Positions 1,868-31,519 of a DNA stretch of 64,000 nt are shown here, one piece after another. Below the pieces are notes generated by a model, which was given only the letters and a program-made list of their open reading frames with translations, was not told where the DNA came from and made no database searches. Location of the stretch: positions 8,535 to 72,534 of the forward strand of contig JBAZXC010000001.1 in assembly GCA_041660065.1 (NCBI GenBank). The letters run 5' to 3'. The DNA is from Parcubacteria group bacterium. GTDB taxonomy: Bacteria > Patescibacteriota > Minisyncoccia > Moranbacterales > GCA-2747515. The position numbers and the translations under genes were made by a program. Positions within the stretch are counted from its first letter, which is position 1. Every line of letters begins with the position of its first letter.

Positions 1868-3415
1868 ATGGGCCTACGATCAAAAATTGCTGTGATGATC
1901 ATGGGGTTTCTTGTTGTGTTCATCGCTGCGAGCCATATGCTGCTCAACGCGATTTTCCAACCGGCGATCATTGTACATGAAAATGAGCATGTGGAGACAA
2001 ATGTGCGTCGTATCACGGAGGTGTTCCAAAATGAAATGAAACACCTTGATCAAATGTGTGCGGACTGGTCGTCGTGGGATGCTTCATATGCATTTATGGT
2101 CTCACGCGATCAAAAGTACATTGATGAGAACATTGATGATAGCACGTTCACGAATGCCAAGTTGAATCTTCTGCACTTTGTGGACATGGAGCATCAAACG
2201 ATATTTTCGCGTGTCTATGATTATGTGCAGAAAAGGGAGATCGATATTGATGAATTCTCACGTGACATGGTGAATGTGGATCGCTTTTTGATACCACGTA
2301 CGCATGATGATCGTGCGCTCGTTGATCAGTATGTGTCCGGCGTCGTTGCAACGAGTCGCGGCATGATGATCGTGTCGAGTCGTTTTATCCTGACAAGTCA
2401 AAATCAGGGACCGGCGCGTGGTGTGTTGATCATGGGGCGGTTCATTGAGCCAATGATCGATCGTATCAAAAAACAGATCGATATTGATTTTGATGTTATC
2501 GTTGATTATGATCGTTTCTACACACAAGAACAGTTGCGCGCACATCCGTACATGGTCAAAAAAGAGGGTGATGAGATGTTCTCAGTATATCAAGGTGTGC
2601 AGGATATACGTGGTGATATTGCATTTGTCGTGCATTTTTTCATACCACGTACATACTATACAGATTCAATGCGACTATTGAAATATGCCCATGTATCAAT
2701 CGCAGTATTTGCACTGGTGAACTTCTTTAGCGTGTTGTGCATATTGGAGATCTTGTGTTTTCGTCCTTTGTTGCGCCTCAAGAAGAGTATCGAGTATGCA
2801 CGCGAGAATCGTGAATTTACAACACACATCACGGTCAAGTCACAAGATGAAATCGGATCTCTTACGCGATCGTTCAGTGCCCTCTGTCAGGTCATCGCAC
2901 GGAACAATGCTGATCTGGAACGCCTTGCACAGACGGACATCTTGACTGGTGTGGCCAATCGTCGCTTTTTGGAAAAGTTTCTCTGTGCGGAGATCCAGAG
3001 ATCACAAAGAAGGAGTTTGATATTTTCGGTGTTGTTCTTTGACATTGATCATTTCAAGCAGATCAATGACGAGTATGGGCATCTGTGCGGGGATCATGTA
3101 TTACAAAAATTCGCGCAATTGCTCCAAGAAAATTCGCGCAAAGAAGATTTGGTAGTGCGATATGGTGGTGAAGAGTTCGTCATCGTCCTTCCTGATACTC
3201 ATAAGGATGATGCGCTGCAACATGCCGAGCGTCTGCGACAATTAATTGCAAACGCATCGATCGCATGGGGCGATCGAACGATCGTCATCACATCAAGTGT
3301 TGGGTGTGCAAGTTATCCACAAAATGGCGATACAGCTGAGCGAGTTGTATCAGCTGCGGACAATGCCCTTTATGCGGCAAAAGATCGTGGTCGCAATAGG
3401 GTTGTCGTTGCGTGA
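1868..3415 (+). CDS. sensor diguanylate cyclase: N-terminal TM, ~270-aa periplasmic sensor domain, second TM, HAMP-like linker, GGDEF domain
   Basis: GGEEF active-site motif (RYGGEEFVIVLPD). RKED (RxxD I-site) lies 5 aa upstream. Also FFDIDHFKQINDEYGH and DNALYAAKDRGRNRV. Two hydrophobic segments bracket the N-terminal domain. Confidence 0.85.
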   Translation: MGLRSKIAVMIMGFLVVFIAASHMLLNAIFQPAIIVHENEHVETNVRRITEVFQNEMKHLDQMCADWSSWDASYAFMVSRDQKYIDENIDDSTFTNAKLNLLHFVDMEHQTIFSRVYDYVQKREIDIDEFSRDMVNVDRFLIPRTHDDRALVDQYVSGVVATSRGMMIVSSRFILTSQNQGPARGVLIMGRFIEPMIDRIKKQIDIDFDVIVDYDRFYTQEQLRAHPYMVKKEGDEMFSVYQGVQDIRGDIAFVVHFFIPRTYYTDSMRLLKYAHVSIAVFALVNFFSVLCILEILCFRPLLRLKKSIEYARENREFTTHITVKSQDEIGSLTRSFSALCQVIARNNADLERLAQTDILTGVANRRFLEKFLCAEIQRSQRRSLIFSVLFFDIDHFKQINDEYGHLCGDHVLQKFAQLLQENSRKEDLVVRYGGEEFVIVLPDTHKDDALQHAERLRQLIANASIAWGDRTIVITSSVGCASYPQNGDTAERVVSAADNALYAAKDRGRNRVVVA

Positions 3416-6573: not shown

Positions 6574-7251
6574 ATGGAAAGCAGTGAAGGATTTTATGTG
6601 ATCAATAAGCCACTCGGGATGAGTTCCCAGCGTGTGGTGCAGGTCGTCAAATATTGGGCGCGAAAAAAAACCGGTAACAAAAAGATCAAAGTGGGGCATG
6701 GTGGCACACTTGATCCGCTTGCAACGGGTGTTTTGATCGTGGCAGTGGGACGGGAATATACCAAAAATATCAATGCGATCGTTACCGCGACAAAGGAATA
6801 CGAAGCGAAGGTTTTTCTGGGAGCAACGAGCACAACAGATGATGCCGAAGGTGAAAAAACGATCCATGATGTTTTGCATGAGCTATCACAAAAGGATATC
6901 GAACGGGTGTTGCAAAAATTCATCGGGGACGTTGCACAGACACCGCCGGCATACAGCGCGATCAAGATCGCGGGCAAGGAAGCATATAAGCGCGTAAGGC
7001 GGGGCGAGGTTGTGGAAATGCAATCGCGCACCGTGCATATTGATGCGATCGAGATCATGTCATACACATACCCGATCGTGGACATTCGTGTGACATGTGG
7101 CAAGGGGACATATATCCGTTCGCTTGCGCGCGATATCGGTGAGTGTCTCGGTACGGGTGCATATATGGCGGGATTGGTGCGTACGCGCATTGGCGAGTTT
7201 ATGCTTGCTCAAGCGCGATCACTTGAAGACTTTGACTACAAAAAACTATGA
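6574..7251 (+). CDS. truB: tRNA pseudouridine(55) synthase
   Basis: GHGGTLDPLATGVL catalytic-Asp motif; length 225 aa. Confidence 0.9.
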   Translation: MESSEGFYVINKPLGMSSQRVVQVVKYWARKKTGNKKIKVGHGGTLDPLATGVLIVAVGREYTKNINAIVTATKEYEAKVFLGATSTTDDAEGEKTIHDVLHELSQKDIERVLQKFIGDVAQTPPAYSAIKIAGKEAYKRVRRGEVVEMQSRTVHIDAIEIMSYTYPIVDIRVTCGKGTYIRSLARDIGECLGTGAYMAGLVRTRIGEFMLAQARSLEDFDYKKL

Positions 7252-8366
7252 AAATTGCCGTACATACCAAAGAATTGGAAAACGCGCGGATCGATGGCAC
7301 GATGGTGTATATTGCAAATGTTTTGCATGCAATGCAACATATGATCGGCGAGGATGACCTGTATCTCTATCATACGCGGCCATACAATGTACACGTGCCC
7401 ATTGCGGAGCATCCGCAAATGCATGATCGCACTATGCCACACTGTCCGGTGTGGACGCAGACGCGATTTGCACGCGCGTTGTGGCAGGATAAGTGTGACG
7501 TGTTATGGATGCCATTGCACAACATGCCGTACTTGCGTCGCAAAAATATGCGTACCGTTGTGACGATCCATGATCTCGCATTCAAATTTTATCCGCAAAC
7601 ATTTCCTACGAAAGATCGTTTCCTCATCAATTTGTGCACAGATCATGCAGTGCGGGTCGCTGATGCGGTGATCGCTGTTTCGGCATCGACAAAAAAAGAC
7701 CTCCTCGCGATTTATCCGTCACTGCGAGAGGATCAAATCCATGTCATCCATCATGGTTTTGATCCGCATGTGTGGCAGAAACATGTTTCTGTACATGATG
7801 CACATATGACGTTGCAACGTTACGGTGTGCGATCACGTGACTATCTCATTCATGTGGGAGCGATTCAGCCACGCAAAAATCTGACGGTGCTTATTGATGC
7901 CTTTGCACAAGTTAAAAAAGAATCTCCGCAACTTAAGCTTGTGCTTGTTGGCGGGGATGGATGGCTTGCACAAGGCATTCACGCACACATTGCGCGCAGT
8001 CCCTATAAAGGGGATATCGTTGTCACAGGTAATATTGCTTTTGCCGATGTACACATATTGATGCAAAACGCATCTGTTTGTGTTTTGCCGTCTCTTTATG
8101 AAGGTTTTGGCATATCGGGACTGGAGGCGATGGCGGCCGGGGTACCGGTTGTCGCGGCGGACAATTCGTGTTTTGGTGAAGTGCTCGGTGATGGCGCGAT
8201 ATATTTTGATGCAAAAAACGTTGCAAAGTGTGCGGAGGCGATCGCAACGGTTTTGTGTGATCACGACAAAAAGAATATCTTGATCGCGCAAGCGCAAAAA
8301 AGAGCCGACATGTTTTCATGGGAAGAATGCGCGCGCAAAACATTGGATGTGTTGCGTGCAAGATAG
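7248..8366 (+). CDS. glycosyltransferase, GT4 family
   Basis: C-terminal EGFGISGLEAMAAGVPVVAADNSCFGEVLGDGAIYFD (Glycos_transf_1). Start overlaps the truB stop (ATGA). Confidence 0.8.
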   Translation: MKIAVHTKELENARIDGTMVYIANVLHAMQHMIGEDDLYLYHTRPYNVHVPIAEHPQMHDRTMPHCPVWTQTRFARALWQDKCDVLWMPLHNMPYLRRKNMRTVVTIHDLAFKFYPQTFPTKDRFLINLCTDHAVRVADAVIAVSASTKKDLLAIYPSLREDQIHVIHHGFDPHVWQKHVSVHDAHMTLQRYGVRSRDYLIHVGAIQPRKNLTVLIDAFAQVKKESPQLKLVLVGGDGWLAQGIHAHIARSPYKGDIVVTGNIAFADVHILMQNASVCVLPSLYEGFGISGLEAMAAGVPVVAADNSCFGEVLGDGAIYFDAKNVAKCAEAIATVLCDHDKKNILIAQAQKRADMFSWEECARKTLDVLRAR

Positions 8367-8378: not shown

Positions 8379-8774
8379 TTATGAGCGATGAAGTTCATGC
8401 TTGTAAAGCATGGAGAGGGCAAAAAATAGTAGGGTCATGCAAATGATCATCATACTTCCAAAAAATATTCCGTAGCGGAAACACGCGAGGCCAACCAATG
8501 CAATGAAAAAAACATATGCGCCCAAGAGGGGAAGCATTTTTGTTTTTTGTATCATATAATAGCGACCTTGTGTGCGAGCCATGTATGCAACGATGATGCA
8601 AATGGCAAAGAGTTTTGCATAGAGAAGTACGGGTGAGATGTGATTGCTGATGATGCCTGGAAGAATCGTCTCGCCAATCAGTATAATGGCAATGACGAAA
8701 AGACCTGCCCGCATGATATCCATGAGAAACAAAAAAATGAGAGGATGGTGAAAAAATTTATGGATGCGCGTCAT
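8379..8774 (-). CDS. small polytopic membrane protein, hypothetical
   Basis: Four hydrophobic segments. Overlaps the upstream gene by 4 nt. Confidence 0.4.
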   Translation of the reverse strand: MTRIHKFFHHPLIFLFLMDIMRAGLFVIAIILIGETILPGIISNHISPVLLYAKLFAICIIVAYMARTQGRYYMIQKTKMLPLLGAYVFFIALVGLACFRYGIFFGSMMIICMTLLFFALSMLYKHELHRS

Positions 8775-9874
8775 GGTGTTGACAGATAAGATTTAGAGAG
8801 TTCTTTTTTGATGGATGTGAGGCGTTGTTCCAATGATGTGTGCGTCGGTGCTGTAGAAAGTGTAATACGGGATTTTTCAATGGTAACGTGAGGTACATCG
8901 ATCATAAATTGATAAATATTTCCGGGGAAAGAAGTAGTCTGCTCAAACGGGATCGTGCAGGTATAGGTATTTTTACGCAAAAGCGCCGGAGATAAAATGC
9001 AGGTGTCAAACGCTGTGCGGGACAGCTCATCGACAATGATCGCGTTTTCTTTTGCACGAACAGTTGGTTCGATTTTATTGAGTTGGTCATGATCATAGAT
9101 GTATGTGCGATCTGCATCTCGTGCATAAAAGATCGTTCCAAACGGATGTGTACTGGAAAGATCGAAAAGGCGCGCTTTTTTATGCAGACCGCGTTCTTCG
9201 TTTGTAGACGATCGCACGTTGGCAAAGTTGTATCCGAGAGCGGAAAAAACAAATTCATCCTGGATGGGGTGTTTGGTATCGCCATCAATAACAAATATGC
9301 CATCATTCGATTTGACGAGTGTGCCGGACGCAAACCCTTTTTTCTCTTGAGAGACTGTGGCGAGGAGATCAACGGCCGAAGATGCAGGGATAGCAGTGTT
9401 TTGCGCAAAAAGGTAGGAATCAAAAACATTCTGGCTAAGGAGGGGGTAGAGTTTTTTGTCAGTGCTGCTGTAGTATGTCCCATCGATTTCATAGGTTGTC
9501 ACGAGATGATCGATATACTTTGTTGCGCCAACTGGTGCGAGGAATGCACGATAAGAATGGCGGAGAGAAAGGATGGTCTTTTTTGGAAGGCGTGGCGCAT
9601 CGTCCGGAAGTGTGATCGTGATATGCGCTGTGGTAAATTCGCCGGAAGCGGTCAGATCAAATGTTGTGCCAAATTCTGTAATGTACGGACGAGAGATCGT
9701 GTTTGCGAGAGAATCCACAGCAGAGCGAAAATCAAAAACGTATGTCGGGAAAATCATTTCTTTGGCAAAATAACCGCCGATAAGCAAAAGCATGCAAAAA
9801 AGACCAATGCGAAAAGCATATAATGTCAAGGTTTGTTTTTTGGTGAGTGATATTTGTGATTGTGATGGTTGCAT
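8771..9874 (-). CDS. membrane-anchored hypothetical protein (N-terminal TM plus ~320-aa extracytoplasmic domain)
   Basis: 367-aa ORF with N-terminal TM LFCMLLLIGGYF. No recognisable domain. Confidence 0.45.
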   Translation of the reverse strand: MQPSQSQISLTKKQTLTLYAFRIGLFCMLLLIGGYFAKEMIFPTYVFDFRSAVDSLANTISRPYITEFGTTFDLTASGEFTTAHITITLPDDAPRLPKKTILSLRHSYRAFLAPVGATKYIDHLVTTYEIDGTYYSSTDKKLYPLLSQNVFDSYLFAQNTAIPASSAVDLLATVSQEKKGFASGTLVKSNDGIFVIDGDTKHPIQDEFVFSALGYNFANVRSSTNEERGLHKKARLFDLSSTHPFGTIFYARDADRTYIYDHDQLNKIEPTVRAKENAIIVDELSRTAFDTCILSPALLRKNTYTCTIPFEQTTSFPGNIYQFMIDVPHVTIEKSRITLSTAPTHTSLEQRLTSIKKELSKSYLSTP

Positions 9875-9878: not shown

Positions 9879-11762
9879 TTATTTTATCTCATAGATCATG
9901 TCGCGCAGTGTAGACGTTGTCTTTGTGGGATATTTTTGCGGGATATTTTTATCAGAGGCGAGATCAAGTTGTTCAAGTGAAAAATAATATGCGGTGAGAG
10001 GATGCATGTGGTCACCAAGTACATCACGATAAAAATTGATATTATCTTGCGGTACGATGAGGAGTATGCGATCAAATGGTGTGCGATCGATCTTTTGGAT
10101 GTCGTAAGGGTTGAAAATATATACCGCGTGTCTGTTCTCCAAAAGTTGCAGTGGCAAAGTCATCATCGACCACCCATTGCCTGTGGAATTTTTGTCTACG
10201 AGGATGAGATCATTCGTGTGGAATCCTTTTGCCAGTGTGTGGACTTGGGGAAGGAGGGTGGTGTTTTCCGCATAGGGAAAAAAGAGGAAAAATGCAGGGA
10301 GATTTGCCAAAAGCATGATCATGAGTGCGCTGAAAACAAAGATTTTTTTGATCGTGTGATCAGTGCGGATCTGCGCAATACCAAATATGCCGATGAGGAT
10401 CGTTGCCGGCACAAGGGCAAAAGCAAAACGACGCAGCATCCACGGATGATCACTGCTGATCTGCGGAAAGAAGTAATACAAAAATAAGGGTAACATGATC
10501 ACAAATATGAGGAGGATCGGTCGGTATTTTTTGTGTTTTAGGGAGAGAAGTATCGTGCCACCTGTGAGTAAAAGCGGTATGAGTAATCCATACATGGTGT
10601 AAATGGAGAGGAGATAATAATACTTGTGGGCGATCTTTGCGGAGAGAGACGGTGCATCGCTGGCAATATCAAAAATGGCATGTGCGATCGTGATAAAAAA
10701 CGGTTGATTCATGATGAGGATCATAAATCCGACGCACAGAAGTGTCGTTACCGGGAAAACGATATGCCACCATAGATCTTGCATGAGGAATGTGCGTATA
10801 GCCTTTTTGCGCAGCGTGAGGTAGGAAAGAATTGCAAAAAACCATATGCCTTCAATGCGCACAAAAGGAAGAAGTGCCAAAACGGCAAAAAATGTATAGT
10901 AGGATATTCTATCTTGCTTGTCACGCAGTGATATGTAGAGTGCGATCGCACTCCATAAAAGTGTGCCAGCCAAATTTTCACTCAATGTAAATTTGGCAAA
11001 CCAACCAATGACAAAAGATGTCAGGAGCATCGCGAGAAATACAAGCACATAGCGATGACGGAAAAAAGATCGTGCGACGCATGTGATCGCAAGGATAAAA
11101 AGAAAAAGCAGGATGCTATTTGCAACGATCAATCCCGTTACGCCACAAATGCCAAAAAATCCGCCGAGAAATGCGATGTAGGGGAGAGAAAACTGTGTGA
11201 TAAGTCCGCCGTCCGGAAGATAATAAAAACCGGGAAAGTTCAGGGCTTTGCCACGGCCGTAAATATCAAAAAATGCCGTACTCTCAGGAGAGTGACTGAT
11301 GAGTTTTTTGTTTTGCGCCAATTGTATCGCAGCACCGGAAAAAGAGCCTTGGTCACGTCCTGCAAAAAGTGTGGGTACGGTGAAAGAAGCGACTGATAGC
11401 GTGAATAGTATTGCGATGATGATGTATAGCATGTACTCGTGTGAGGGATGGGGAAACTGTAGTATTTTCTTGTAAATAAAAAAAATGCATAATGCGATCC
11501 ATGCGCCAAAAATGCCTACTGGATAAAAAATGCCCAATATTGTTGCCAAAAGTGCGATCCATACATACAAAACAACCATGAGGATGATGGTTTGCAGAAA
11601 TGTTTTATCATTTTGTATGCAGGTATTTTCCACGTATTTATTATATCTTCTATCACATGTGTTGACAAATGTGGAGGCATCCGTGTCATCCATGTGTGAG
11701 AAGTTTGAAATTGTGTATACAAAATGGTAAAATAAAAGAAGAAATAAATATAAAAAGATCAT
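9879..11762 (-). CDS. polytopic membrane protein, putative GT-C fold glycosyltransferase (PMT/ArnT-like) with C-terminal soluble domain
   Basis: At least 12 predicted TM segments over ~480 aa followed by a ~140-aa soluble C-terminus. The start is uncertain; the ATG at 11762 overlaps the divergent gene's ATG (CATG). Confidence 0.45.
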   Translation of the reverse strand: MIFLYLFLLLFYHFVYTISNFSHMDDTDASTFVNTCDRRYNKYVENTCIQNDKTFLQTIILMVVLYVWIALLATILGIFYPVGIFGAWIALCIFFIYKKILQFPHPSHEYMLYIIIAILFTLSVASFTVPTLFAGRDQGSFSGAAIQLAQNKKLISHSPESTAFFDIYGRGKALNFPGFYYLPDGGLITQFSLPYIAFLGGFFGICGVTGLIVANSILLFLFILAITCVARSFFRHRYVLVFLAMLLTSFVIGWFAKFTLSENLAGTLLWSAIALYISLRDKQDRISYYTFFAVLALLPFVRIEGIWFFAILSYLTLRKKAIRTFLMQDLWWHIVFPVTTLLCVGFMILIMNQPFFITIAHAIFDIASDAPSLSAKIAHKYYYLLSIYTMYGLLIPLLLTGGTILLSLKHKKYRPILLIFVIMLPLFLYYFFPQISSDHPWMLRRFAFALVPATILIGIFGIAQIRTDHTIKKIFVFSALMIMLLANLPAFFLFFPYAENTTLLPQVHTLAKGFHTNDLILVDKNSTGNGWSMMTLPLQLLENRHAVYIFNPYDIQKIDRTPFDRILLIVPQDNINFYRDVLGDHMHPLTAYYFSLEQLDLASDKNIPQKYPTKTTSTLRDMIYEIK

Positions 11763-14229
11763 GCATCAAAAAAGTTTTATCCGATGGTATATCGGTGATG
11801 GTTCACGGGCGATGTTTTCATTGTGGAAGCAGTTGGTTTTTTTTGTGCCACGGCATTTTTCTATGGCGCTTTTGTTTCGTACGCTTTTTGCGCCATGGCA
11901 TCGTGACATCTCTCTCAAAACATGGCGCGGATTTAGTCCGTTACGATCTGTTGATCGACTGATATGGAATGTCTTTTCTCGTGTCATTGGTGCGATCGTG
12001 CGATTGGGTGTGATCACTTCCGGGTTGGTTTTGTGGGTGATCATTGGGGGCATAGGCTTTGTCACAGCGCTTGTCTATGTTTGCGCGCCGGGCGTTTTGG
12101 TTGTTTCTTTCGTATTGTTTTTTAGTGCGTTTCGATTTGTTGCTTTTGGGGTTTTTGTGTTTACTTTGTGTGTGATCTATGGCGCATACATTTTGTTTCG
12201 TACAAGTGGGCATATGCTGTATGAACGCATGAGCATGAAACAGTTGCATGAACAAAAATGGTTTTATCGTGTGTATGAACGCATCGGCGTAGAAGCAGAG
12301 GATATTCCCTATGATATTCTCAGTGACTTTCCCGCATTTCAAAAATTTCTCCTCACGAAAGACGTCACGGTTGAAGAGTTTGAATTGATCGTTGCATGGG
12401 AGATCGAACAACAAAAGCGTCGTGAACAAGATGCAAAACTTTTTTCAGAAGAAAAATTTCTTCGTCTGCGACCGATTGGTCTGCACTGGCATTTCGGATA
12501 TACGGTGCAACTTGATCATTACGCGGAGGATCTTACAGCGTATGACCATAGTGATTATGCACGGTATCCTTTTCATGGATTTGATCAGGAAATGGGATTG
12601 ATCGAGGTTGTTCTCGCACGACCACATGAAAACAATATCCTCCTTACCGGACAAGCCGGTCTTGGCCGACATATGATCATTCATGAATTGGCACGCAGGA
12701 TCCGCACGGGATATTTTGAACGAAGTTTTATGCGGTATATGCGCTTCATGCAATGTGATTTTACAAGCGTCATGGCACAGGCAAAGAGCAAAGGTGAAGA
12801 TCCGGAATTTATCGTGCACAGTCTGTTTCATGAGGCGGCGTATGCGGGCAATATCATTTTTGTGGTGGATAACTTTGAGCAGTATATTGATACAAATATT
12901 AGTCGCGGATTTTCTTTTACGACGATCATTGATGAATATGCGTCGATGGAATCATTTCGCATGATCGCAATTGCGACAGAAGAAGCATTTCATGAAAAAG
13001 TTGACGCGGATCAGATCGTGGGGCGGCATTTTGACGTGATCCCTGTGCATGAGATGGATGATGTGCATGCGATGAAAGTACTCTTTACACGCTTTTATGG
13101 TGAGACACATACGCCATTTACTTATCAGGCATTGCGACAAGTGATCACGGATGCGCAACGGTACACCAATACCGCGCCATTGCCGACGCGTGCGATCAGT
13201 CTGGCGATAGAAGTATTTTTGCAGTGGCAAAAGACAGGGGACGGGTTTATCACGGCACAAACTGTCGATGCATTCATCACACAAAAGACGGGCATCCCTG
13301 TGGGGAATATTGCACAGGAGGAACAACAAAAACTTCTTTCATTGGAGGACACTCTTCATAAGATGATCATTGGGCAGAGTGCTGCTGTGCAGACAGTTGC
13401 TGCAGCTGTGCGTCGCATGCGTTCCGGTATGGCACGACCCAACAAACCGGCGGGAACATTCTTGTTTTTGGGTCCGACGGGTGTGGGGAAGACGGAAATG
13501 GCGAAAGCGATCGCTGCGCAATATTTCGGATCGGATGAAAAAGTTGTGCGTATCGATATGAGCGAATATCAGGGACCGACAGCGGTGGATCGCTTGATCG
13601 GATCCAAAGAATTGAATCAAAAAGGCGCGTTTGTCTCTGCTGCGAAAGAGCATCCATATGCATTACTTCTTTTGGATGAGATCGACAAAGCAAATCCACG
13701 TGTTTTGGATCTGTTTTTGCAGATCCTTGATGAGGGTTTTGTGCATGATGCTTTCGGGCACAAAATCAGTTTCACATCGATGATCATTATCGCCACATCA
13801 AATGCCGGTGCACTCATGATCAAAAAGATGGTGGAAATGGGTATGGACCCGGCACAAGAGGAAGAAAAGATCGTCAATGGTATCATCGAGAGCGGAGTAT
13901 TTCGTCCGGAGTTCATCAATCGTTTCGATGATGTGGTGATCTTTGGTCCATTGGAAGGAGAAAATGTGCGCACGGTGACACAACTACTTTTGCAAAAATT
14001 TGCCACACGTGTTTTGAAAGAACAAAACATCGATGTGACCTTTGCAGATGGCGTAGTGGATAGAATAATTGAAAAAGGATATGATCATGTATTTGGCGCG
14101 CGATCGGTCATGCGATACATTGATGACGGCATTGCGGACATCTTTGCCAAAAAATTGATCGCAGGCAACGTCCATCGCGGAGAAACAGTGCATTTTGCGA
14201 CGAAGGATATGGAAGAGGTGGGCTCTTGA
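11761..14229 (+). CDS. membrane-anchored Clp/Hsp100-family ATPase: N-terminal TM segments, degenerate first ATPase domain, intact D2 AAA+ domain with ClpB-D2-small
   Basis: D2: GPTGVGKTEMAKAIA (Walker A), LLLLDEIDKANP (Walker B), IIIATSNAG, VFRPEFINRFDDVVIF. The D1 position has GQAGLGRH instead of GxxGxGKT/S. N-terminal hydrophobic helices (VITSGLVLWVIIGGIGFV, VLVVSFVLFFSAF, FVFTLCVIYGAYILF). The start may be at a later Met (11812 or 11863). Confidence 0.7.
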   Translation: MHQKSFIRWYIGDGSRAMFSLWKQLVFFVPRHFSMALLFRTLFAPWHRDISLKTWRGFSPLRSVDRLIWNVFSRVIGAIVRLGVITSGLVLWVIIGGIGFVTALVYVCAPGVLVVSFVLFFSAFRFVAFGVFVFTLCVIYGAYILFRTSGHMLYERMSMKQLHEQKWFYRVYERIGVEAEDIPYDILSDFPAFQKFLLTKDVTVEEFELIVAWEIEQQKRREQDAKLFSEEKFLRLRPIGLHWHFGYTVQLDHYAEDLTAYDHSDYARYPFHGFDQEMGLIEVVLARPHENNILLTGQAGLGRHMIIHELARRIRTGYFERSFMRYMRFMQCDFTSVMAQAKSKGEDPEFIVHSLFHEAAYAGNIIFVVDNFEQYIDTNISRGFSFTTIIDEYASMESFRMIAIATEEAFHEKVDADQIVGRHFDVIPVHEMDDVHAMKVLFTRFYGETHTPFTYQALRQVITDAQRYTNTAPLPTRAISLAIEVFLQWQKTGDGFITAQTVDAFITQKTGIPVGNIAQEEQQKLLSLEDTLHKMIIGQSAAVQTVAAAVRRMRSGMARPNKPAGTFLFLGPTGVGKTEMAKAIAAQYFGSDEKVVRIDMSEYQGPTAVDRLIGSKELNQKGAFVSAAKEHPYALLLLDEIDKANPRVLDLFLQILDEGFVHDAFGHKISFTSMIIIATSNAGALMIKKMVEMGMDPAQEEEKIVNGIIESGVFRPEFINRFDDVVIFGPLEGENVRTVTQLLLQKFATRVLKEQNIDVTFADGVVDRIIEKGYDHVFGARSVMRYIDDGIADIFAKKLIAGNVHRGETVHFATKDMEEVGS

Positions 14230-14309
14230 TTTTTTGGATTCTTTTGGTATAGTGAGTAGCATTGTGATAGAAAGTTTGTGTTGAAAAATATGCAAAAGTG
14301 GAGGGCATT

Positions 14310-14696
14310 ATGTCTATGGGAACACAATGTTTCTTGGCAGAAAGAGGTCTTTCAGCACAGGAAAAAGATAAGAAGCAATTTTTTTGTACGCAGTGTCAAC
14401 AATTTCACTCAAAGTACAACGTGCGATATATATTCATCGAAGGAGGGAATGCGCACGCATCGTTTTTTGTTCCAGCAATGATCTATCCGATCTGTAGGCA
14501 GTGTTACAACAAGGTGAAAAAACAAAGTTCTTTGGCTATGACGTGTGTGTTTTTCGATAGGGAATTTCTGGCGTATCACATCACAATGCGTCGCGGAAGG
14601 TATCTTGTGGCAAAATTCGGCCATATGATCGAACTTACCGAAAAACAGGTTATGAAATACAAACAAGCCGCACAAAAGTTTATCACTGCGGCATGA
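14310..14696 (+). CDS. Cys-rich hypothetical protein (two CxxC pairs, putative zinc ribbon)
   Basis: ORF 14298 starts on GTG. ATG at 14310 has GGAGG ~7 nt upstream. Contains CTQCQQ...CRQCYNK. Confidence 0.4.
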   Translation: MSMGTQCFLAERGLSAQEKDKKQFFCTQCQQFHSKYNVRYIFIEGGNAHASFFVPAMIYPICRQCYNKVKKQSSLAMTCVFFDREFLAYHITMRRGRYLVAKFGHMIELTEKQVMKYKQAAQKFITAA

Positions 14697-14741
14697 GGGA
14701 CAATTATATATAATTGTCCCTCTTCGATTTTGTGGTTTTTG
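14697..14741 (+). terminator. rho-independent terminator: perfect palindrome GGGACAATTATATATAATTGTCCC plus T-rich tail
   Basis: Immediately after the stop at 14694-14696. Confidence 0.6.
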
Positions 14742-14747
14742 AAAAGA

Positions 14748-14790
14748 AAAAAGTCGTTTCCACGTATATCATTGTGGAAACGACTTTTGG
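14748..14790 (-). terminator. rho-independent terminator for the convergent minus-strand gene
   Basis: AAAAGTCGTTTCCAC / GTGGAAACGACTTTT stem. T-tract on the minus strand after the stop at 14794. Confidence 0.55.
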
Positions 14791-14793
14791 CCA

Positions 14794-15114
14794 TCATCGG
14801 ATGGCGGCGAACTCGTCGCACTTTTTATGAATTTTGTTGAATGCTTTTGGGTCTGACGTGTCCAGATTTACAATATCAAAAATAATTTTTTGCATGTTTC
14901 TGGCGTGAGTGCTGTGGCCGTTTTTGATCATTCTGCAGATAACTGCAAAAATATATCCGATCAATTGGGCAACAGTATCCCGCGTCTCTTTTGAGACATC
15001 CTCAGTTATGCTTTGCAACAGGATCATTTGTATTGCTAAGTCATATTCCTCCACATAACTTTTACAGATGTCCCAACCATCACTGGGTTTTACAAATACA
15101 GGCTCTAACTGCAT
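14794..15114 (-). CDS. hypothetical protein
   Basis: ORF 14794..15174. In-frame ATG at 15114 has GGGAGG ~9 nt upstream. No recognisable domain. Confidence 0.35.
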   Translation of the reverse strand: MQLEPVFVKPSDGWDICKSYVEEYDLAIQMILLQSITEDVSKETRDTVAQLIGYIFAVICRMIKNGHSTHARNMQKIIFDIVNLDTSDPKAFNKIHKKCDEFAAIR

Positions 15115-15342
15115 GGCATACCTCCCATTGATAATTTGTGTAATGTCGCAGTGATGTAATGTAAAGATGACCACGACAATACGGTAAATTTTAGAGGGTA
15201 CAATTACAACCGTCCATTATAGCAAAAAAATGCAATTTTGTCAAGAGTGGCGTTTGAGCGGACAATGAATTGTCATAAGGGAGAAAGTGTGATACCGTGA
15301 AGGGAGAAAAATAGGATTTTTTGTATTAATTGAGAGATTTTT

Positions 15343-16545
15343 GTGAAGATTTTAATGATTGCACCGACGCCGTTCTTTTCTCATCGCGGGACGCATATTC
15401 GCATACTGGAAGAGGCGCGAGCGCTTGAGTACTTGGGACATGACGTGGCGATCGTCACATATCATAATGGAGATGATATCACGCGGTATATATCCACAAA
15501 GATCGATGTGCGTCGGATCCGTCGATGGCTCTTTTGGTACAAAAAAACGGAAGCAGGTGCAGATTGGCAGAAGGTGCTCTTGAATGTATTTCTCATCAAA
15601 AAAACGATTTATATGACGCGGACATTTCGACCGGATGTTGTCCATGCGCATTTGCATGAGGGCATATTGATCGGTTGGATCGTCCAGAAGATCTTTTTTT
15701 GGCGAAAGTTTTTGCTCGTGGCGGATTTCCATGGAAGCTTGGTCAATGAAATGCGTTCACATGGCTATCTCAGTATGCCACCGCTCGGAACGATTTTCCG
15801 CATTGTAGAGAAGTGGATCAATGGTATGGGAGATCGTGCGGTGGTAAGTGGGGAAGAAAATGTGTCACTTATCAAAGACGCGCGAAAAGATCATTGTGCA
15901 GAATATGTCTGGGATGGTGTGAATGCGCGTACGTATCAGGGATTGCCAGATAGGAGCACGCTACGCAAGAAGTATCACGTTCCGGTGGATGCATTTATTG
16001 TTGTATATACGGGAGCATTGATCCAAAACAAAGGTGTACAACATGTTTTGGATGCGATCGCATCGACACGTGAACGCATTGCAGATGTTCATTTTGTTAT
16101 CGGTGGGTATCCTGACGAATGGGTGCGTGCATTCATCAAAGAGCACGGATTGAATGACTGTGTGACGGTTATTTCTCCACTTAATTATTTTGCGCTTGCG
16201 GAAGTGAATAGTTTGTCCGATGTGGCAATCGATCCCAAAGACGCGCAAGTTCAGCAAGCTAGTGGAAAGATTTTACAATACATGGCAGCACATGTGGGCA
16301 TTATTTGTGCTGACCGTCCAACCAACCATAAATACCTCTCTCCAGACAGTGCGCAATTTTTGTCGACGGTTGATGCGTATACTCTAACAGAGGCGATTAT
16401 GCGGTTCTATGTGGATAGAGCGTTTTTGGATGTGTGTGCACAGCATGCATTTCGTGATGTGCAAGAGTTTGATTGGAGTGTGATCGGACGAAAGCTTGAT
16501 GAAATTTATCACAGTGATGGATTAACATGTAATTTAGGGGCGTGA
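15343..16545 (+). CDS. glycosyltransferase, GT4 family
   Basis: N-terminal MKILMIAPTPFFSHRGTHIRILEEARAL and C-terminal GT-B fold features. GTG start at 15343. Confidence 0.7.
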   Translation: MKILMIAPTPFFSHRGTHIRILEEARALEYLGHDVAIVTYHNGDDITRYISTKIDVRRIRRWLFWYKKTEAGADWQKVLLNVFLIKKTIYMTRTFRPDVVHAHLHEGILIGWIVQKIFFWRKFLLVADFHGSLVNEMRSHGYLSMPPLGTIFRIVEKWINGMGDRAVVSGEENVSLIKDARKDHCAEYVWDGVNARTYQGLPDRSTLRKKYHVPVDAFIVVYTGALIQNKGVQHVLDAIASTRERIADVHFVIGGYPDEWVRAFIKEHGLNDCVTVISPLNYFALAEVNSLSDVAIDPKDAQVQQASGKILQYMAAHVGIICADRPTNHKYLSPDSAQFLSTVDAYTLTEAIMRFYVDRAFLDVCAQHAFRDVQEFDWSVIGRKLDEIYHSDGLTCNLGA

Positions 16546-18770
16546 TGTTACACAAAGTTGGCAATGACAACAATAAAGAAAAACAAGGGCAAAAAACGTG
16601 GAAAGAAAAATTCGCATTTGTTTTTGGGATTGTTGCAAAAAGTGTTTTTGATCTGGGGCTGGTCGCTTTGGTCGCTTTCTTTACGATTTTTTTATATGTG
16701 TATTACACCACGGTGCAACCGGATGCGTTGGTGCAACGAACGATCTCCGAGACGTCGATCATCTATGACAGCACGGGCGAGCACGAATTGTATCGCATGT
16801 ATGGCGAAGAAAATCGTAAAGTGATCGCGCATGATGATATCCCTGATTTTATGCGCAGCGCGACGATTGCCGCAGAGGACGACAATTTCTATCATCATAT
16901 GGGTGTGGATGTTTTTGGGATCGTGCGTGCATTGGAAAAGAATTTTATCGCCGGAAGTAAAGCGCAAGGAGGCAGTACGATCACGCAACAATTGGTGCGC
17001 AATACATTTCTCTCCAGAGAAAAAACGATCAAACGAAAGTTTATTGAGATCGTTCTCGCGATCAAAATGGAGCGACATTACTCCAAGGCTGAGATTTTGG
17101 ATTTTTATTTGAATGAGGTGCCATACGGATCGAATGCCTATGGTGTACAGGCGGCGGCACAAAATTTTTTTGGCAAAAATGCGCGCGATCTGACATTGGA
17201 TGAGGCGGCGCTATTGGCATCATTGCCAAAGGCGACGACGTATTATTCACCATATGGTAATAATATAGATGCGCTTAAAGAACGTCAGCAATCGATCATT
17301 GCACGATTGGGAGAACTGAGGTTGTATGATCAAGCGGCGATTGATGAAGCGCTAAAGGCGGACACGCTTGCGAAATTGCAGGAATTTCATGAGGAGATCG
17401 ATGCACCGCATTTTGTATTTTATGTACGCGAGCAATTGGAGCAGATGTATGGCACGGACGTTGTGCAACGTGGCGGATTGAAAGTGTATACAACGTTGAA
17501 TTATGATATGCAAAAACGTGCGGAAGAGGATGTGTCAAAATATGCCAGCAAATTACCACAATATAATGCATCCAACGCAGCACTTGTGGCATTGTCACCT
17601 AAGACGGGAGATGTGTTGGCGATGGTGGGCAGTGTTGATTATTTTGACAAAAAGAATGATGGTGAGGTCAATGTCGCACTCAGGCCACGTCAGCCGGGTT
17701 CATCGTTCAAGCCGATCGTTTATGCCGCGGGTTTTGACAAAGGATATCAACCGGAGACACTGCTCTATGATGTGCAGACAAGTTTTGGCAAGGATGGCAG
17801 TGGCAAAGATTATACGCCGCATAATTATGATGGACAAAATCATGGACTCGTTCCTGTTCGTAAGGCGTTGGCAGGGTCGCTCAATGTGCCGGCAGTCAAA
17901 ATGCTCTATTTGGTAGGCATTGATAACGCAATTGATTTTGCAGAAACGTTGGGCATTACAACGCTTACGGACCGTAAACGCTATGGACTCTCTCTCGTAC
18001 TTGGCGGTGGTGAAGTGAAGCTTTTGGAGGAAACGGGCGCATTTGCAGTCTTTGGCAATGATGGTGTGCGTGCACCGGTGCATGGGATCAATCGTGTGAT
18101 CGACGCATCCGGTAAAGAGATCAGTAGTGCTCCACAGTCGGAACGTGTGATCGACGCGGAAGTTGCGCGAAAAATTTCCAGTATTTTATCAGACAATGAT
18201 GCACGGTCATTCATTTTTGGTTCAAGTAGTGCGGTCTATATTCCCGGAAAAAAGGTGGCGGCAAAAACAGGAACAACACAAGATTATCGTGACGCATGGA
18301 CGGTAGGATATACGCCGGAGATTGCTGTGGGTGTATGGGTGGGAAATAATGACGGCACGTTGATGCGCGCAGGAAGTGATGGATCATTTGTTGCGGCGCC
18401 ACTCTGGCATACGTTTATGGCGCGCGAGCTTGAATCGTTGCCTGACACACAGTTTGAGCCATACCAAAAGATCGAATCACATATTCCCATGATCACAGGT
18501 AATCGTCCTGATGGTGTAAGTGAAGATGGGGGAAAGATCTATTTTAACAAAAACACCGGTAAGCAGATCTCTGCAGAAAAAGCGAGTAAAATGGATAAAA
18601 GTAAATTGGAGGAAAAATATGCGCAGTCGTACGGTGGTCACAGCATTTTGTATTATGTCAATAAAGACAATCCGTTGGATGAAACCGCAAAGCCAAATTA
18701 TTCTGACCCGATGCTTGCTTTGTGGGATGCGGCATTAAACGGAAGTAATAAAGATGATAATAAGGATTGA
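16545..18770 (+). CDS. class A penicillin-binding protein (GT51 transglycosylase plus transpeptidase), PBP1A family
   Basis: GT51 motifs EDDNFYHHMGVD, GGSTITQQLVRN, RKFIEIVLAIKMERHYSKAEILDFYLN. Transpeptidase motifs SSFKP (SxxK) and KTGTT. N-terminal TM. Start overlaps the previous stop (ATGA). Confidence 0.9.
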   Translation: MLHKVGNDNNKEKQGQKTWKEKFAFVFGIVAKSVFDLGLVALVAFFTIFLYVYYTTVQPDALVQRTISETSIIYDSTGEHELYRMYGEENRKVIAHDDIPDFMRSATIAAEDDNFYHHMGVDVFGIVRALEKNFIAGSKAQGGSTITQQLVRNTFLSREKTIKRKFIEIVLAIKMERHYSKAEILDFYLNEVPYGSNAYGVQAAAQNFFGKNARDLTLDEAALLASLPKATTYYSPYGNNIDALKERQQSIIARLGELRLYDQAAIDEALKADTLAKLQEFHEEIDAPHFVFYVREQLEQMYGTDVVQRGGLKVYTTLNYDMQKRAEEDVSKYASKLPQYNASNAALVALSPKTGDVLAMVGSVDYFDKKNDGEVNVALRPRQPGSSFKPIVYAAGFDKGYQPETLLYDVQTSFGKDGSGKDYTPHNYDGQNHGLVPVRKALAGSLNVPAVKMLYLVGIDNAIDFAETLGITTLTDRKRYGLSLVLGGGEVKLLEETGAFAVFGNDGVRAPVHGINRVIDASGKEISSAPQSERVIDAEVARKISSILSDNDARSFIFGSSSAVYIPGKKVAAKTGTTQDYRDAWTVGYTPEIAVGVWVGNNDGTLMRAGSDGSFVAAPLWHTFMARELESLPDTQFEPYQKIESHIPMITGNRPDGVSEDGGKIYFNKNTGKQISAEKASKMDKSKLEEKYAQSYGGHSILYYVNKDNPLDETAKPNYSDPMLALWDAALNGSNKDDNKD

Positions 18771-18784: not shown

Positions 18785-19021
18785 ATGCCAGAAAAAATGT
18801 CTCCTGTCGGTCAATATAAATGGGTAAGAAAACCTTTTGAAGTGACGGAAGAAATGCGTGAGGGTGCACAGAAGTTGGAGGAAGAGGAGTCGATCCGTTC
18901 CGGCGACATTGGTCCGATACATGAAACAATGTGCCCGACAAAAAAACAAATTGCGCGTAACGATGCAATTTTGACAGAGGAAGGTAAAATGATAAAATCA
19001 CACGATCATGAGAACAAATAA
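18785..19021 (+). CDS. small hypothetical ORF (79 aa)
   Basis: ORF 18767..19021 between the PBP and the next gene. Low complexity. Coding status uncertain. Confidence 0.2.
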   Translation: MPEKMSPVGQYKWVRKPFEVTEEMREGAQKLEEEESIRSGDIGPIHETMCPTKKQIARNDAILTEEGKMIKSHDHENK

Positions 19022-20690
19022 TTACAATAATAGAAATAATAATAATAATGGCTTCTGGGTGAAAAAAACGGTCTGGTTTTTTGCGATCGTGATCATTATT
19101 GGTGGCGGTGTGTGGTGGTATCTGACATCGCACAAAGGCGCGGTTTTGCAAAAGACGATCCAAATGGCGGACAATGTGCTTAAATTGGAGAAATTGGACG
19201 ATAGTACGCGTGCAAAATTTGGCGTGATCCAAGATATCGCCAATGCGATGCTTGTGCAAGATGATGTGACGCGCAGATATTTGGTGCTCCTTCAGAACAA
19301 TTTGGAATTGCGTCCGGGCGGTGGGTTTTTGGGTCAATATGCTGTTGTGGAAGTAAAAAATGGCGGAATTCTTTCATATAACATCGAGGATTCCAATGTA
19401 TTGGACAGCACATACCAATCCGATCGTTTGTTGTCGCTTTCTCTGCAGAGGTATTTGAGTGATACGAAGAAGATGAAATTTCGTGACAGTAATTATTCGC
19501 CGAATTTTCCGGAGAATGTGGCAGATGCGTTGCATTTCTATGCGCTTGCAGGGAGAGACGCTAATTTTGACGGTGTGTTTGCTGTGAATGCGTCACTGTT
19601 TGAAGACTTCCTTACGATCACCGGTCCGATCACGACGACAGAAAAAAATTATGAGGAGTATGGTGAATTTACGAGTGATGGTGGCTTGATGAAGTTGGAG
19701 CGTGTTGCAGAGGAGCCGTTTTTCCGCAGTGATGAGCGCAAAGCGTGTGAGAAAGATTTGCGGGAACGTGGCGTGGATGAAGAGCACATGGATGATCTGT
19801 GGAACGCATGTATCTATGATGCAAACGGCAAAAAGAAGAAATTAATGGATCATGGAGAGGAGGTTGCACGCAAAAATATTCTTAATGCAATTGCCAAGGA
19901 AATGATGCCAAAACTCATCAAGGTGGATAATATTGAACCGTTCATCATGATGGTGACTAAAAATTTGGCGGACAAAGATATCCAGTTATGGTTTAAAGAT
20001 GAAAAGTTACAACAATTGGCACGCAATGAGAATTGGACGGGCGAGGTAGATCAGAATTGGGATGGGGATTATGTAATGATCTCGGATGCCAATGTGGGTG
20101 CGCTCAAGTCTGATTTTTATATGAAACGGACAATGGAATATAAAGTGGATTTCACCGGCAAAAGTGCGGAAGCAAATGATGCGGCAGTGGGACGTATGGT
20201 GCGTTATATTACTGATGATGTAAAGGCGCAAGTCATGGGTGGGACATTTGTGACGGACTTACCTCTTGCCACGGCGCGCATGACATATGAAAATACGGCG
20301 ACAGAGGCAAGTTATTTCAATATGGATTATCATTCGTTTACGCGTCTGTATGTGCCGGAAGGAAGTAAATGGTATGTGCGCGAATGGTTTGAAGCGCCGG
20401 GACTTGATAATAATGTGTTTGGCAATAAACAAGTATACGGATATAAATTTGATGTATTACTCGGACAGACGATCCCGACGATGCTACAGTACACATTGCC
20501 AAGCAGGATCACTGAGAACGGATATAAGCTCAAGATTCAAAAACAATCCGGTATTGGCACAATACCGCTTACCGTGACGGTGATCGGATCAGATGGAAAA
20601 AAATATACCAAAGATGTGCAGTTTGAGCACGATATGATCTTTGAGCTTAAAGACACGGGTGGTGGCAAAGAATTGGTAGTCGTCGAGTAA
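19008..20690 (+). CDS. membrane-anchored extracytoplasmic protein, possibly DUF4012 family
   Basis: N-terminal Asn-rich tail, then a single TM (FFAIVIIIGGGVWWYL). LLQNNLELRPGGGFLGQYAVVEV resembles the NAE-R-GGF motif recalled for DUF4012. Tentative. Confidence 0.45.
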   Translation: MRTNNYNNRNNNNNGFWVKKTVWFFAIVIIIGGGVWWYLTSHKGAVLQKTIQMADNVLKLEKLDDSTRAKFGVIQDIANAMLVQDDVTRRYLVLLQNNLELRPGGGFLGQYAVVEVKNGGILSYNIEDSNVLDSTYQSDRLLSLSLQRYLSDTKKMKFRDSNYSPNFPENVADALHFYALAGRDANFDGVFAVNASLFEDFLTITGPITTTEKNYEEYGEFTSDGGLMKLERVAEEPFFRSDERKACEKDLRERGVDEEHMDDLWNACIYDANGKKKKLMDHGEEVARKNILNAIAKEMMPKLIKVDNIEPFIMMVTKNLADKDIQLWFKDEKLQQLARNENWTGEVDQNWDGDYVMISDANVGALKSDFYMKRTMEYKVDFTGKSAEANDAAVGRMVRYITDDVKAQVMGGTFVTDLPLATARMTYENTATEASYFNMDYHSFTRLYVPEGSKWYVREWFEAPGLDNNVFGNKQVYGYKFDVLLGQTIPTMLQYTLPSRITENGYKLKIQKQSGIGTIPLTVTVIGSDGKKYTKDVQFEHDMIFELKDTGGGKELVVVE

Positions 20691-31374: not shown

Positions 31375-31490
31375 ATCTCTCCCTTTTGCAAAGGGAGCTG
31401 CCTGCCCGCAGTGCTTTTGCACATGCCGTGCGGGCGGGGAGGGATTGGGAACTCTCCCTTTTACAAAGGGAGTTGGAGGGATTTTAAAAT
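31375..31490. repeat. intergenic repeat copy (CTGCCCGCAG..GCGGGCGGGG palindrome plus GGGATTGGGAACTCTCCCTTTTACAAAGGGAGTTGGAGGGATTTT) between the GT2 and the Wzt gene
   Basis: Same units as at 27392-27480. Listed ORF 31300..31506 is a translation of this repeat. Confidence 0.75.
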
Positions 31491-31519
31491 CATTTATACT
31501 CGTTAAGAAACTACAACAT

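Follow-up and report, generated by a model that had tools for sequence, protein, structure and literature searches.

The stretch of DNA analysed here, 64,000 nucleotides of contig JBAZXC010000001.1 from a Parcubacteria group bacterium (hereafter the window), carries at 11761..14229 on the forward strand one unbroken open reading frame (ORF), established by ORF calling and translation, for an 822-aa membrane-embedded ATPase derived from the Clp/Hsp100 proteins. Pfam and NCBIfam searches, alignment to PDB sequences, comparison with homologs, and an AlphaFold2 (AF2) model together divide the protein into a small N-terminal module (the N-module), membrane helices, a putatively inactive first ATPase module (pseudo-D1), and an apparently active second one (D2). 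What is new here is a pore-loop-less Hsp100 derivative that is embedded in the membrane, occurs across the candidate phyla radiation (CPR, or Patescibacteria), and has a dedicated membrane partner, to which it is fused in this genome. We regard the architectural part of this description, a membrane-anchored two-ring Clp protein with a complete D2, a pseudo-D1, and a set of lost elements, as very likely to be correct. A first-pass annotation of the gene, made from the sequence, had proposed a membrane-anchored Hsp100-type ATPase, and this held at the family level: Pfam matches AAA_2 at residues 562-724 (6e-41) and ClpB_D2-small at residues 731-811 (6e-16), with nothing significant ahead of residue ~290, and hydropathy marks a hydrophobic block at residues 73-149.

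By fold and by D2 the protein belongs to the Clp/Hsp100 superfamily, but it fails the defining features of ClpA, ClpB, ClpC, ClpV, FtsH, and Torsin alike. The best NCBIfam models are ClpB (TIGR03346, 362 bits against a cut-off of 1232) and ClpA (TIGR02639, 326 against 993, aligned in a single stretch over residues 174-812), and all equivalog scores, including that of TssH/ClpV (TIGR03345, 286 bits against 885), reach about one third of their cut-offs. Among PDB sequences, residues 248-484 align to the D1 of Staphylococcus aureus ClpC with 53 bits. The AF2 model (predicted local distance difference test score, pLDDT, 85.4; predicted template modelling score, pTM, 0.75) is matched by Foldseek to ClpC, ClpC1, and ClpB protomers with a template modelling (TM) score of ~0.8 across ~580 residues. 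A search of 5.8 billion proteins found 56 relatives, nearly all of ~820 aa and covered over their full length at 28-77% identity, those with names coming from Parcubacteria, Moraniibacteria, and Microgenomates; a scan of reference genomes added family members from Saccharimonadia/Saccharibacteria and other Patescibacteria. The scan used generic Clp motifs (GPTGVGKTE and similar), so that about 70 of its 80 loci held ordinary ClpB or ClpC proteins, which we re-used as an outgroup. We inferred a distance-based tree by neighbour joining from 566 columns of the D1+D2 core in 68 sequences, with 60 bootstraps, E. coli ClpA as the root, and E. coli ClpB included. All 39 family sequences group in it as a single clade (100% bootstrap) on a long stem, apart from the 29 ClpA/B/C sequences. 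The question of placement among Clp proteins that the first-pass annotation had raised is thereby answered with a separate family: the ATPase belongs to a Patescibacteria-specific, monophyletic offshoot of the two-ring Clp/Hsp100 ATPases. Public records label its relatives 'AAA family ATPase', 'ClpA', or 'ClpC', and we found no description of a membrane-anchored CPR Clp family in the literature. Transcriptome papers on TM7x mention 'clpB' and 'clpP' locus tags, which could not be matched to this family.

Motifs were tabulated and column entropies calculated for 39 family members and 29 ordinary Clp proteins (entropies are given below as family/ordinary), and the motif coordinates of the window protein, all on the forward strand, were checked by translation. 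The D2 motor with its D2-small domain spans residues 496-822 (13246..14226), as delimited by Pfam, ClpC alignment, entropies, and translation. Judged by its motifs, D2 keeps all catalytic elements: Walker A GPTGVGKT (13471-13494), Walker B LLLLDEIDKA (13663-13692), sensor-1 ATSN (13792-13803), the arginine finger within FRPEFINRFDD (13900-13932), sensor-2 FGARS (14092-14106), and D2-small. By mean column entropy, the family conserves these motifs as well as ordinary Clp proteins do: Walker A (0.03/0.15), Walker B (0.59/0.41), sensor 1 (0.36/0.55), and the arginine finger (0.93/0.71). K577, T578, D639, E640, T679-N681, R721, and G779-R781 are invariant, and every D2 catalytic residue is among the 62 invariant columns of the alignment. 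The earlier description of a canonical D2 module is right for the catalytic motifs, those that it quoted lying where it had placed them, and wrong for pore loop 1, which is shortened and has no aromatic residue.

D1 (residues 248-495; 12502..13245), delimited by alignment to ClpC D1 and by entropies, has changed far more. Its Walker A-like GQAGLGRH (12649-12672) lies opposite GEPGVGKT of ClpC, its Walker B-like IIFVVDNFEQ (12853-12882) opposite ILFIDELH, with DE altered to DN, and at the position of the arginine fingers it reads VGRHFD (13018-13035), with RR altered to RH. The first-pass annotation had taken GQAGLGRH for a degenerate P-loop, and the alignment, in which no intact Walker A appears, agrees. 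Across the family the D1 motifs vary accordingly, with entropies of 1.39/0.20 for Walker A, 1.58/0.78 for Walker B, and 2.43/0.79 for the arginine fingers, and the Walker B 'DE' is retained in only three of the 39 members. The decay is graded: split forms of Saccharibacteria (those in which module and ATPase are separate genes, see below) have GQAGTGKTT and FIDEAQ, Microgenomates have G-x-G-K-K-T and V-R-D, and the clade of the window protein is the most degenerate, with G-x-G-R-H-M, V-D-N, and the arginine fingers lost. These substitutions mark D1 as a pseudo-ATPase in most members. Because glycines G297, G300, and G302 of the P-loop are invariant, a structural or residual ligand-binding role of D1 is plausible.

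The loops that would line the central channel have been lost along with the D1 active site. At the D1 pore-loop position (12775-12810) the window protein reads AQAKSKGEDPEF and has no Tyr, with KSKG where ClpC has KYRG. In D2, the ClpC sequence 'GAPPGYVGHDDGG' pairs with 'GSKE----LNQKG', so that 'GAPPGYVG' is replaced, four residues are deleted, and the remaining loop GSKELNQKG (13600-13626, placed by the ClpC alignment) has no Tyr. A pore-loop aromatic is found in one of 39 family members against 28 of 29 ordinary Clp proteins in D1, and in one of 39 against 29 of 29 in D2; both rings have lost it in 38 of the 39. The D2 loop averages 9.7 residues in the family and 14.0 in ordinary Clp proteins, about four fewer, is polar and rich in small residues, and has an entropy of 1.88 against 0.48, values which suggest that it evolves freely and without constraint.

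The elements by which Clp proteins engage known partners are missing as well. With a connector between D1 and D2 of 43-48 residues (46 in the window protein), against 107 in ClpC and ~170 in ClpB, the family has no M-domain. The first-pass annotation had seen no ClpP-binding IGF/L loop, and indeed no [ILV]-G-[FL] ClpP-docking loop is conserved across the family; in the motif table the ClpP-loop position of the window protein (13822-13869, KKMVEMGMDPAQEEEK) has no IGF/L and reads KKMVEMGMDPAQ, where the comparison proteins have VGF or LGF (ClpC sequences) and IGL (E. coli ClpA). No Clp_N match was found in the window protein even at E<=1, the best in the family being E=0.21 in locus L086, and the idea of a Clp_N remnant between the membrane helices and D1 was dropped, there being no significant match in the window protein or the split forms. 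In place of a Clp N-domain, residues 150-247 (12208..12501, +) form a linker that is helical in the AF2 model, of which residues 193-249 show a weak alignment with the corresponding part of the split-form ATPase at L006. A Pfam scan found no peptidase domain of the FtsH type (M41), and the protein ends with D2-small.

The N-terminal region gives the family its most distinctive feature. Residues 1-75 (11761..11985, +), conserved in fused and stand-alone forms, are basic and soluble-looking, with 11 K/R against 3 D/E ahead of the hydrophobic block, and comprise three short helices and a loop that carries RTLFAPWHRD (11878-11907). The whole module (~120 aa) has the signature W-H-Y ... F-F-S ... 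T-L-F-x-P-W-x-R ... S-R-x-x-G-x-x-x-R, with TLFxPW[HK]R in the loop, and then a hydrophobic stretch of ~45 residues with an invariant Pro; no Pfam model covers it (a significant match in 0 of 56 members). When residues 1-160 were searched with phmmer against 1.84 billion cluster representatives, 346 proteins matched. They fall into two size classes, a majority of ~125-135 aa and a longer class of ~800-830 aa, to which about 28 of the top 150 belong. Residues 1-121 of the window protein align throughout with 55 stand-alone modules and 26 fused homologs. The model of a stand-alone module (pLDDT 93.3) consists of a helical pair, the motif-carrying loop, and one continuous 64-residue helix, and Foldseek found no similar fold in the PDB (best E=5.7).

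Stand-alone module genes are followed, at a distance of 2-3 nt or with an overlap, by a gene for an 810-854-aa Clp-like protein with membrane helices of its own. This split layout is seen in L006 (Parcubacteria DG_74_3), L008 (Saccharimonadales), and L086, and again in L088, where the contig end truncates the downstream gene and its match to the ATPase is only weak; in L007, L009, L012, and L018 the N-module hidden Markov model (HMM) matches directly upstream of the ATPase ORF, and in the divergent locus L017 a 115-aa ORF overlaps the ATPase start by 4 nt. The window protein is thus a gene fusion of the N-module and a membrane-anchored double AAA+ protein that in Saccharibacteria and some Parcubacteria are encoded by separate adjacent or overlapping genes, and the genetic coupling of the ATPase to a small membrane module is obligatory. 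In the neighbour-joining tree the fused forms make up one clade (58% support) nested among split forms, so that fusion is the derived state; it probably happened once or twice. The first-pass annotation had allowed that the N-terminus might be a mis-annotated upstream ORF. Here it is genuinely part of the ATPase protein, since homologs at 28-77% identity align over the full length, and a separate gene is the ancestral state found elsewhere. The start at 11761 is sound in that homologs begin with the same M-x-x-K-x-F-x-x-W-Y and a promoter-like site, TTGAAA-17-TAAAAT with an upstream TG (11705..11733, +; a consensus match only), ends 28 nt ahead of the ATG.

The first-pass annotation had read the N-terminal ~150 residues as several transmembrane (TM) helices instead of a Clp N-domain. 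The Clp N-domain is indeed absent, and the helices are confined to residues ~76-149 (11986..12207, +; hydropathy and AF2 helices), behind the basic module. Residues 76 to ~121 form the hydrophobic helix of the N-module, which is preceded by SRVIGAIVR (residues 73-81, 11977-12003) and contains the near-invariant P110, and an additional hydrophobic helix follows the module at ~126-146. AF2 predicts helices in the fused protein at 60-107, 109-119, and 125-149, with a break at P110. By the positive-inside rule, the basic N-module and the R/K/H-rich stretch after residue 146 would be cytoplasmic and the nearly uncharged 120-125 loop outside. An in-out-in arrangement of one long tilted helix and one return helix would fit the fusion: where the split ATPases bring two helices of their own, the fused Parcubacteria form adds just one after the module. 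Members from Microgenomates are without this extra helix, yet have a strongly basic stretch right after the hydrophobic segment of the module, so that a tight hairpin would be required there. The proposed check of TM topology by structure prediction therefore had a mixed outcome: residues 73-149 are helical in the AF2 model, and hydropathy, the positive-inside rule, and the AF2 helices give no single pass number across the family, only a range of 2-4.

Two further sets of sequences touch on the limits of the family. Loci L011, L015, L030, and L080, from metagenome-assembled genomes labelled 'uncultured Gammaproteobacteria', encode Clp-like proteins of 866-935 aa, which the tree puts within the CPR clade (100% bootstrap) and which share the short Tyr-less D2 loop, the absent M-domain, and the degenerate D1 Walker B; the N-module HMM finds no module in these loci, and L080 carries two divergent paralogs. 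They represent either mis-binning or a sister subfamily outside the CPR. In L093, a 528-aa truncated paralog (L093:4364-5950, +) with no Pfam matches lies directly upstream of the full-length gene (L093:6001-8457, homolog P0032) and matches the window ATPase with 396 bits (E=1.4e-119). Its length and the missing Pfam matches suggest that it probably consists of N-module, membrane helices, and pseudo-D1 without D2, and it could be either a partner in hetero-oligomers or a duplicate in decay.

The genes around the ATPase are largely concerned with the cell envelope. Divergent from it lies a gene for a polytopic membrane protein (9879..11762, -) that we take, from annotated relatives and synteny, for a glycosyltransferase (GT) of the GT-C type resembling PMT_2 (GT39) proteins. 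Directly compared, it has no significant similarity to a PMT_2 protein of the window or to PDB sequences; its family is large in the CPR, and because a few annotated relatives match PMT_2 (PF13231) and one is named GT39, the 627-aa neighbour can be assigned as a divergent GT-C glycosyltransferase. Its orthologs, of ~580-627 aa across loci, adjoin the ATPase in L091, L095, L096, and L100 (phmmer), 12 further pairs of ATPase and GT-C-like homologs lie on contigs identical in size to the base, down to 6.8 kb, and one pair has the consecutive locus tags CR972_04965 and CR972_04970. The first possible start codons of the two divergent genes overlap (CATG, 11760-11763), and promoter-like sites occur on both strands between them (11705-11733, +; 11668-11640, -). 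The forward site implies that the upstream gene starts downstream of its first ATG; together, the two sites and the lengths of homologs indicate that it probably starts at M24 (604 aa, the NCBI call) or M62, so that the two divergent genes would share a control region. A gene for a 367-aa single-TM protein (8771..9874, -; ~370-446 aa in relatives), with orthologs in the same four loci, runs in the same direction as the GT-C-like gene.

Further out lie an upstream GT4 (7248-8366), whose orthologs are next to the ATPase in L095, L096, L091, and L100 (phmmer), and on the forward strand, identified by Pfam, a downstream GT4 (15343-16545; orthologs in L095, L001, and L100), a class A penicillin-binding protein, PBP1A (16542-18770; L095 and L001), and a DUF4012 protein (19008-20690; L095, L001, and L091). 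ATPase identity across these synteny loci is 39-77%. A universal GT4 partner was considered and rejected: the GT4 adjacent to the ATPase in Microgenomates is not orthologous to the downstream GT4 and has generic similarity (E=4.5e-16) to another GT4. GT4 adjacency carries weight only within the fused clade of Parcubacteria, since it is there that orthology is shown and the window is full of GTs. Beside split forms we find an LCP ligase (L008), MurT/GatD (L012), TatC directly upstream (L018, Saccharibacteria), an initiating sugar transferase and a GT4 (L007), and mraZ-rsmH-ftsL-ftsI (L006). A complete Moraniibacteria genome has the hrcA-grpE-dnaK operon ~2.5 kb ahead of its ATPase homolog (L001:1578-5484). 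The 64-kb window contains no CIRCE/HrcA operator at up to 3 mismatches, which leaves a heat-shock link unsupported here.

From these features a working model can be proposed. By analogy with other N-terminally anchored AAA+ rings, the protein would form a hexamer held at the inner membrane face by its N-terminal helices, with the D1 face toward the bilayer. D1 would serve as a structural scaffold and ATP hydrolysis in D2 as the sole motor, and the ring would act through or with its own membrane module on membrane-embedded clients, as an ATP-driven conformational remodeller or assembly factor and not as a processive unfoldase. For physical contact of the module with the ATPase, gene fusion and adjacency give indirect evidence. 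Taken as a whole, the statement that this is a D2-driven, non-proteolytic, probably non-threading membrane remodeller or assembly factor linked to envelope biogenesis is the reading we favour, tentatively and with a confidence somewhat short of even. We favour non-threading remodelling because the gripping loops are shortened and unconstrained while the ATP site is invariant, and because there is no docking element for a protease or Hsp70. The neighbourhood, with GT-C-like, GT4, PBP1A, and DUF4012 genes here and LCP, MurT/GatD, division and cell wall (dcw) cluster, and sugar transferase genes elsewhere, would make the envelope glycan or peptidoglycan assembly machinery the likeliest client.

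Several points weigh against this reading. The function is drawn from losses and neighbourhood only, with uncharacterised homologs. The neighbourhood signal stands without a background frequency, in genomes that are dense in envelope genes and in a window that is itself a glycan island, and loci L093 and L094 have no envelope neighbours. The loss of aromatics is no proof of a loss of translocation, as other residues could contact substrate. Members from Microgenomates without the extra helix also seem hard to reconcile with a single topology. A bolder form of the remodeller reading, which we think distinctly unlikely, is a CPR-wide membrane machine in which an Hsp100-derived ring has given up threading and D2 hydrolysis moves a ring of long N-module helices, to remodel the membrane or to drive or gate, with the GT-C-like glycosyltransferase, the assembly or export of envelope glycoconjugates or peptidoglycan precursors. 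If true, it would be a new mechanistic class of AAA+ device and a bacterial counterpart of Torsins.

The main rival is an unfoldase for membrane-protein extraction and quality control, in which the anchored hexamer would pull damaged or mislocalised membrane proteins through its axial channel, like the ATPase part of FtsH or Msp1/ATAD1 and without a protease. N-terminal anchoring would bring the entry face of D1 up to the membrane, the D2 motor is complete, and non-aromatic substrate contacts are conceivable; an HtrA-like protease lies downstream in one locus (L093), and the hrcA-grpE-dnaK operon of the Moraniibacteria locus is also close by. Pore-loop aromatics are, however, needed for substrate gripping in Clp/Hsp100, FtsH, and Msp1 (PMC5425593), and their absence from 38 of 39 members, with a D2 loop that is short and unconstrained, tells against extraction, as do the missing protease domain and docking loop and the lack of a CIRCE/HrcA operator in the window. 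We consider this explanation unlikely, if still one to be taken seriously. The same loss bears on a secretion or translocation ATPase, in which a ring of helices (6 x 2-3 helices plus the module) would form or gate a conduit and D2 would power cargo export or insertion, as might be compared to HSP101 of Plasmodium PTEX or ClpV of type VI secretion. Such a role could account for the genetic coupling of the ATPase to a highly conserved module with a long hydrophobic helix (pLDDT 93), tatC is directly upstream in one Saccharibacteria locus, and the family spans CPR lineages, many of whose members are known epibionts. But HSP101 and ClpV thread substrates and this protein has no pore-loop tyrosines, its extracytoplasmic loops are minimal, the neighbourhoods examined contain no recurring secretion-system genes and no type VI secretion genes, and the TssH model scores far below its cut-off, so that this role seems improbable. 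The threading functions that the first-pass annotation had offered as candidates (membrane-protein extraction, quality control, and a secretion-associated unfoldase) are all weakened by the pore-loop result.

Two other explanations fare worse. A membrane-tethered ClpB-like disaggregase working with DnaK, or a ClpA/ClpC-type subunit of a ClpP-coupled protease, is what the best NCBIfam matches (ClpB and ClpA) and the 'ClpA/ClpC' annotation of relatives would suggest, a dnaK operon is near the homolog in one genome, and Saccharibacteria are reported to encode clpP. The motif tests largely refute this, and we hold it to be very improbable: the bit scores for ClpB and ClpA are far under the cut-offs, the 46-residue connector leaves no M-domain (~170 residues) for Hsp70 docking, and the IGF/L loop, the Clp_N domain for adaptors, and the pore-loop Tyr are all missing. 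The degeneration of D1 motifs, pore loops, and accessory domains together could also be expected of a functionless Clp relic decaying in a reduced genome. Here the conservation pattern makes a relic scarcely credible, since a full-length ORF persists in dozens of independent assemblies, at identities as low as 28%, the 62 invariant columns include every D2 catalytic residue, the N-module is conserved in 346 clusters, synteny is conserved, and the structure is confidently predicted.

With ClpA, ClpC, and ClpB the family shares tandem D1 and D2 modules with D2-small, near-identical D2 catalytic motifs, and a TM score of ~0.8; it has no M-domain, as in ClpA and unlike ClpB and ClpC, and no ClpP loop, as in ClpB and unlike ClpA and ClpC. 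It differs from all three in having a membrane-embedded N-terminus in place of Clp_N, a pseudo-D1, no pore-loop Tyr, a shorter D2 loop, and a separate long-branch clade. Torsins, metazoan AAA+ proteins of the endoplasmic reticulum and nuclear envelope, are Clp-related and associate with membranes through an N-terminal hydrophobic region. They have no aromatic pore loops, are considered unlikely to act as translocases, and work with a degenerate AAA+-like partner, comparable to the pseudo-D1 of this family (PMC5425593). In this they offer a precedent for the non-threading reading. Torsins nonetheless have a single AAA+ module without an arginine finger of its own and act in the lumen of the endoplasmic reticulum, activated by LAP1 or LULL1, whereas the family has two rings and the invariant R721 and is bacterial and cytoplasmic. 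The Torsin Pfam model matches the window protein below threshold (E=0.008 over 68 residues), and we would treat the resemblance as analogy, not membership.

FtsH and Msp1/ATAD1 are hexameric AAA+ rings tethered by N-terminal TM segments, the entry face turned to the bilayer, an arrangement also proposed for the family. Both have aromatic pore loops, together with an M41 protease domain in FtsH and a single ring in Msp1; the window protein has neither such loops nor the protease domain. SMAX1/D53-type proteins and apicoplast ClpM are likewise Clp double-ring scaffolds stripped of canonical unfoldase features, and SMAX1 is a distant PDB match to D2; they are eukaryotic and soluble, act as transcriptional co-repressors or organelle proteins, and have neither membrane embedding nor an N-module. 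The defence ATPases DolB (Dodola) and PDC-M37B share the ClpB-type AAA_2 core (PADLOC, 4e-30 and 6e-27). A defence system was rejected as an explanation: these matches cover only D2 residues ~514-689, the generic AAA_2 core, there are no partner genes, and the context is one of envelope biosynthesis with no defence island.

Clp/Hsp100 machines are the textbook polypeptide-threading motors. Across the major CPR lineages sampled (Parcubacteria, Microgenomates, and Saccharibacteria), this family has kept the motor while both sets of gripping loops, the first ATPase site, and all known elements for docking partners have gone, and it has acquired a dedicated membrane module that is described in no database. 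It offers a natural experiment in what a Clp ring can do without threading and, in cultivable Saccharibacteria, a potentially tractable bacterial parallel to Torsins. It is also a candidate CPR-specific envelope-biogenesis factor, and CPR cell-surface biology underlies the epibiotic lifestyle of many of these bacteria. In CPR metabolic and proteostasis reconstructions, labels such as 'ClpA/ClpC' or 'AAA family ATPase' are misleading for its members.

The segment right after the ATPase gene (14229-15343) is a variable insertion slot, which holds three unrelated genes in a 77%-identical relative (L095) and MazE, Fic, and a type I restriction-modification system in a 65% relative (L096), and is empty in Moraniibacteria L001. 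In the window it contains a Cys-rich ORF (14298/14310-14696, +), lineage-specific and outside the conserved system, which the first-pass annotation had called a putative zinc-ribbon protein whose conservation might be checked. The CxxC...CxxC pattern is there (residues 26-29 and 62-65); the match to Zn_ribbon_6, at 16.6 bits, is below the cut-off of 25. Nor is the ORF conserved: a search of 5.8 billion proteins recovered nothing but the ORF itself, and the loci of relatives do not have it. As an ORFan in a variable slot, it was rejected as a partner of the ATPase. A terminator-like 12-bp hairpin with a T-run (14695..14722, +; sequence scan) comes only after the Cys-rich ORF, which may for this reason be co-transcribed with the ATPase gene. 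The slot also holds a convergent 126-aa ORF (14794-15174, -) with a perfect sigma-70-like promoter, TTGACA-17-TATAAT with TG (15244-15216).

At the scale of the window, positions 7248-63682 are almost wholly an envelope-glycan island, with at least five GT4/GT1 genes, six GT2 genes, and three PMT_2 GT-C genes (47873-49468, 56020-57999, and 57986-60247), together with GDP-mannose dehydratase and epimerases, UDP-glucose dehydrogenase, and YdjC. The island also encodes a DUF5648x3 + SpoIID protein (42750-44675, -) and, at 22054-25515, an LCAT-like hydrolase of 1153 aa that carries a peptidoglycan-binding domain. An adenosine phosphosulfate (APS) kinase fused to an inositol-monophosphatase/CysQ-like domain is followed by a sulfotransferase (32397-34692, +), both in a GT2/GT4 block with parts of a Wzm/Wzt-like ABC-2 transporter (28253-29044 and 31445-32353); the sulfation and GT genes suggest a sulfated surface glycan. 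A CHASE4 + GGDEF diguanylate cyclase gene (1868-3415, +) suggests cyclic di-GMP signalling in a reduced CPR bacterium.

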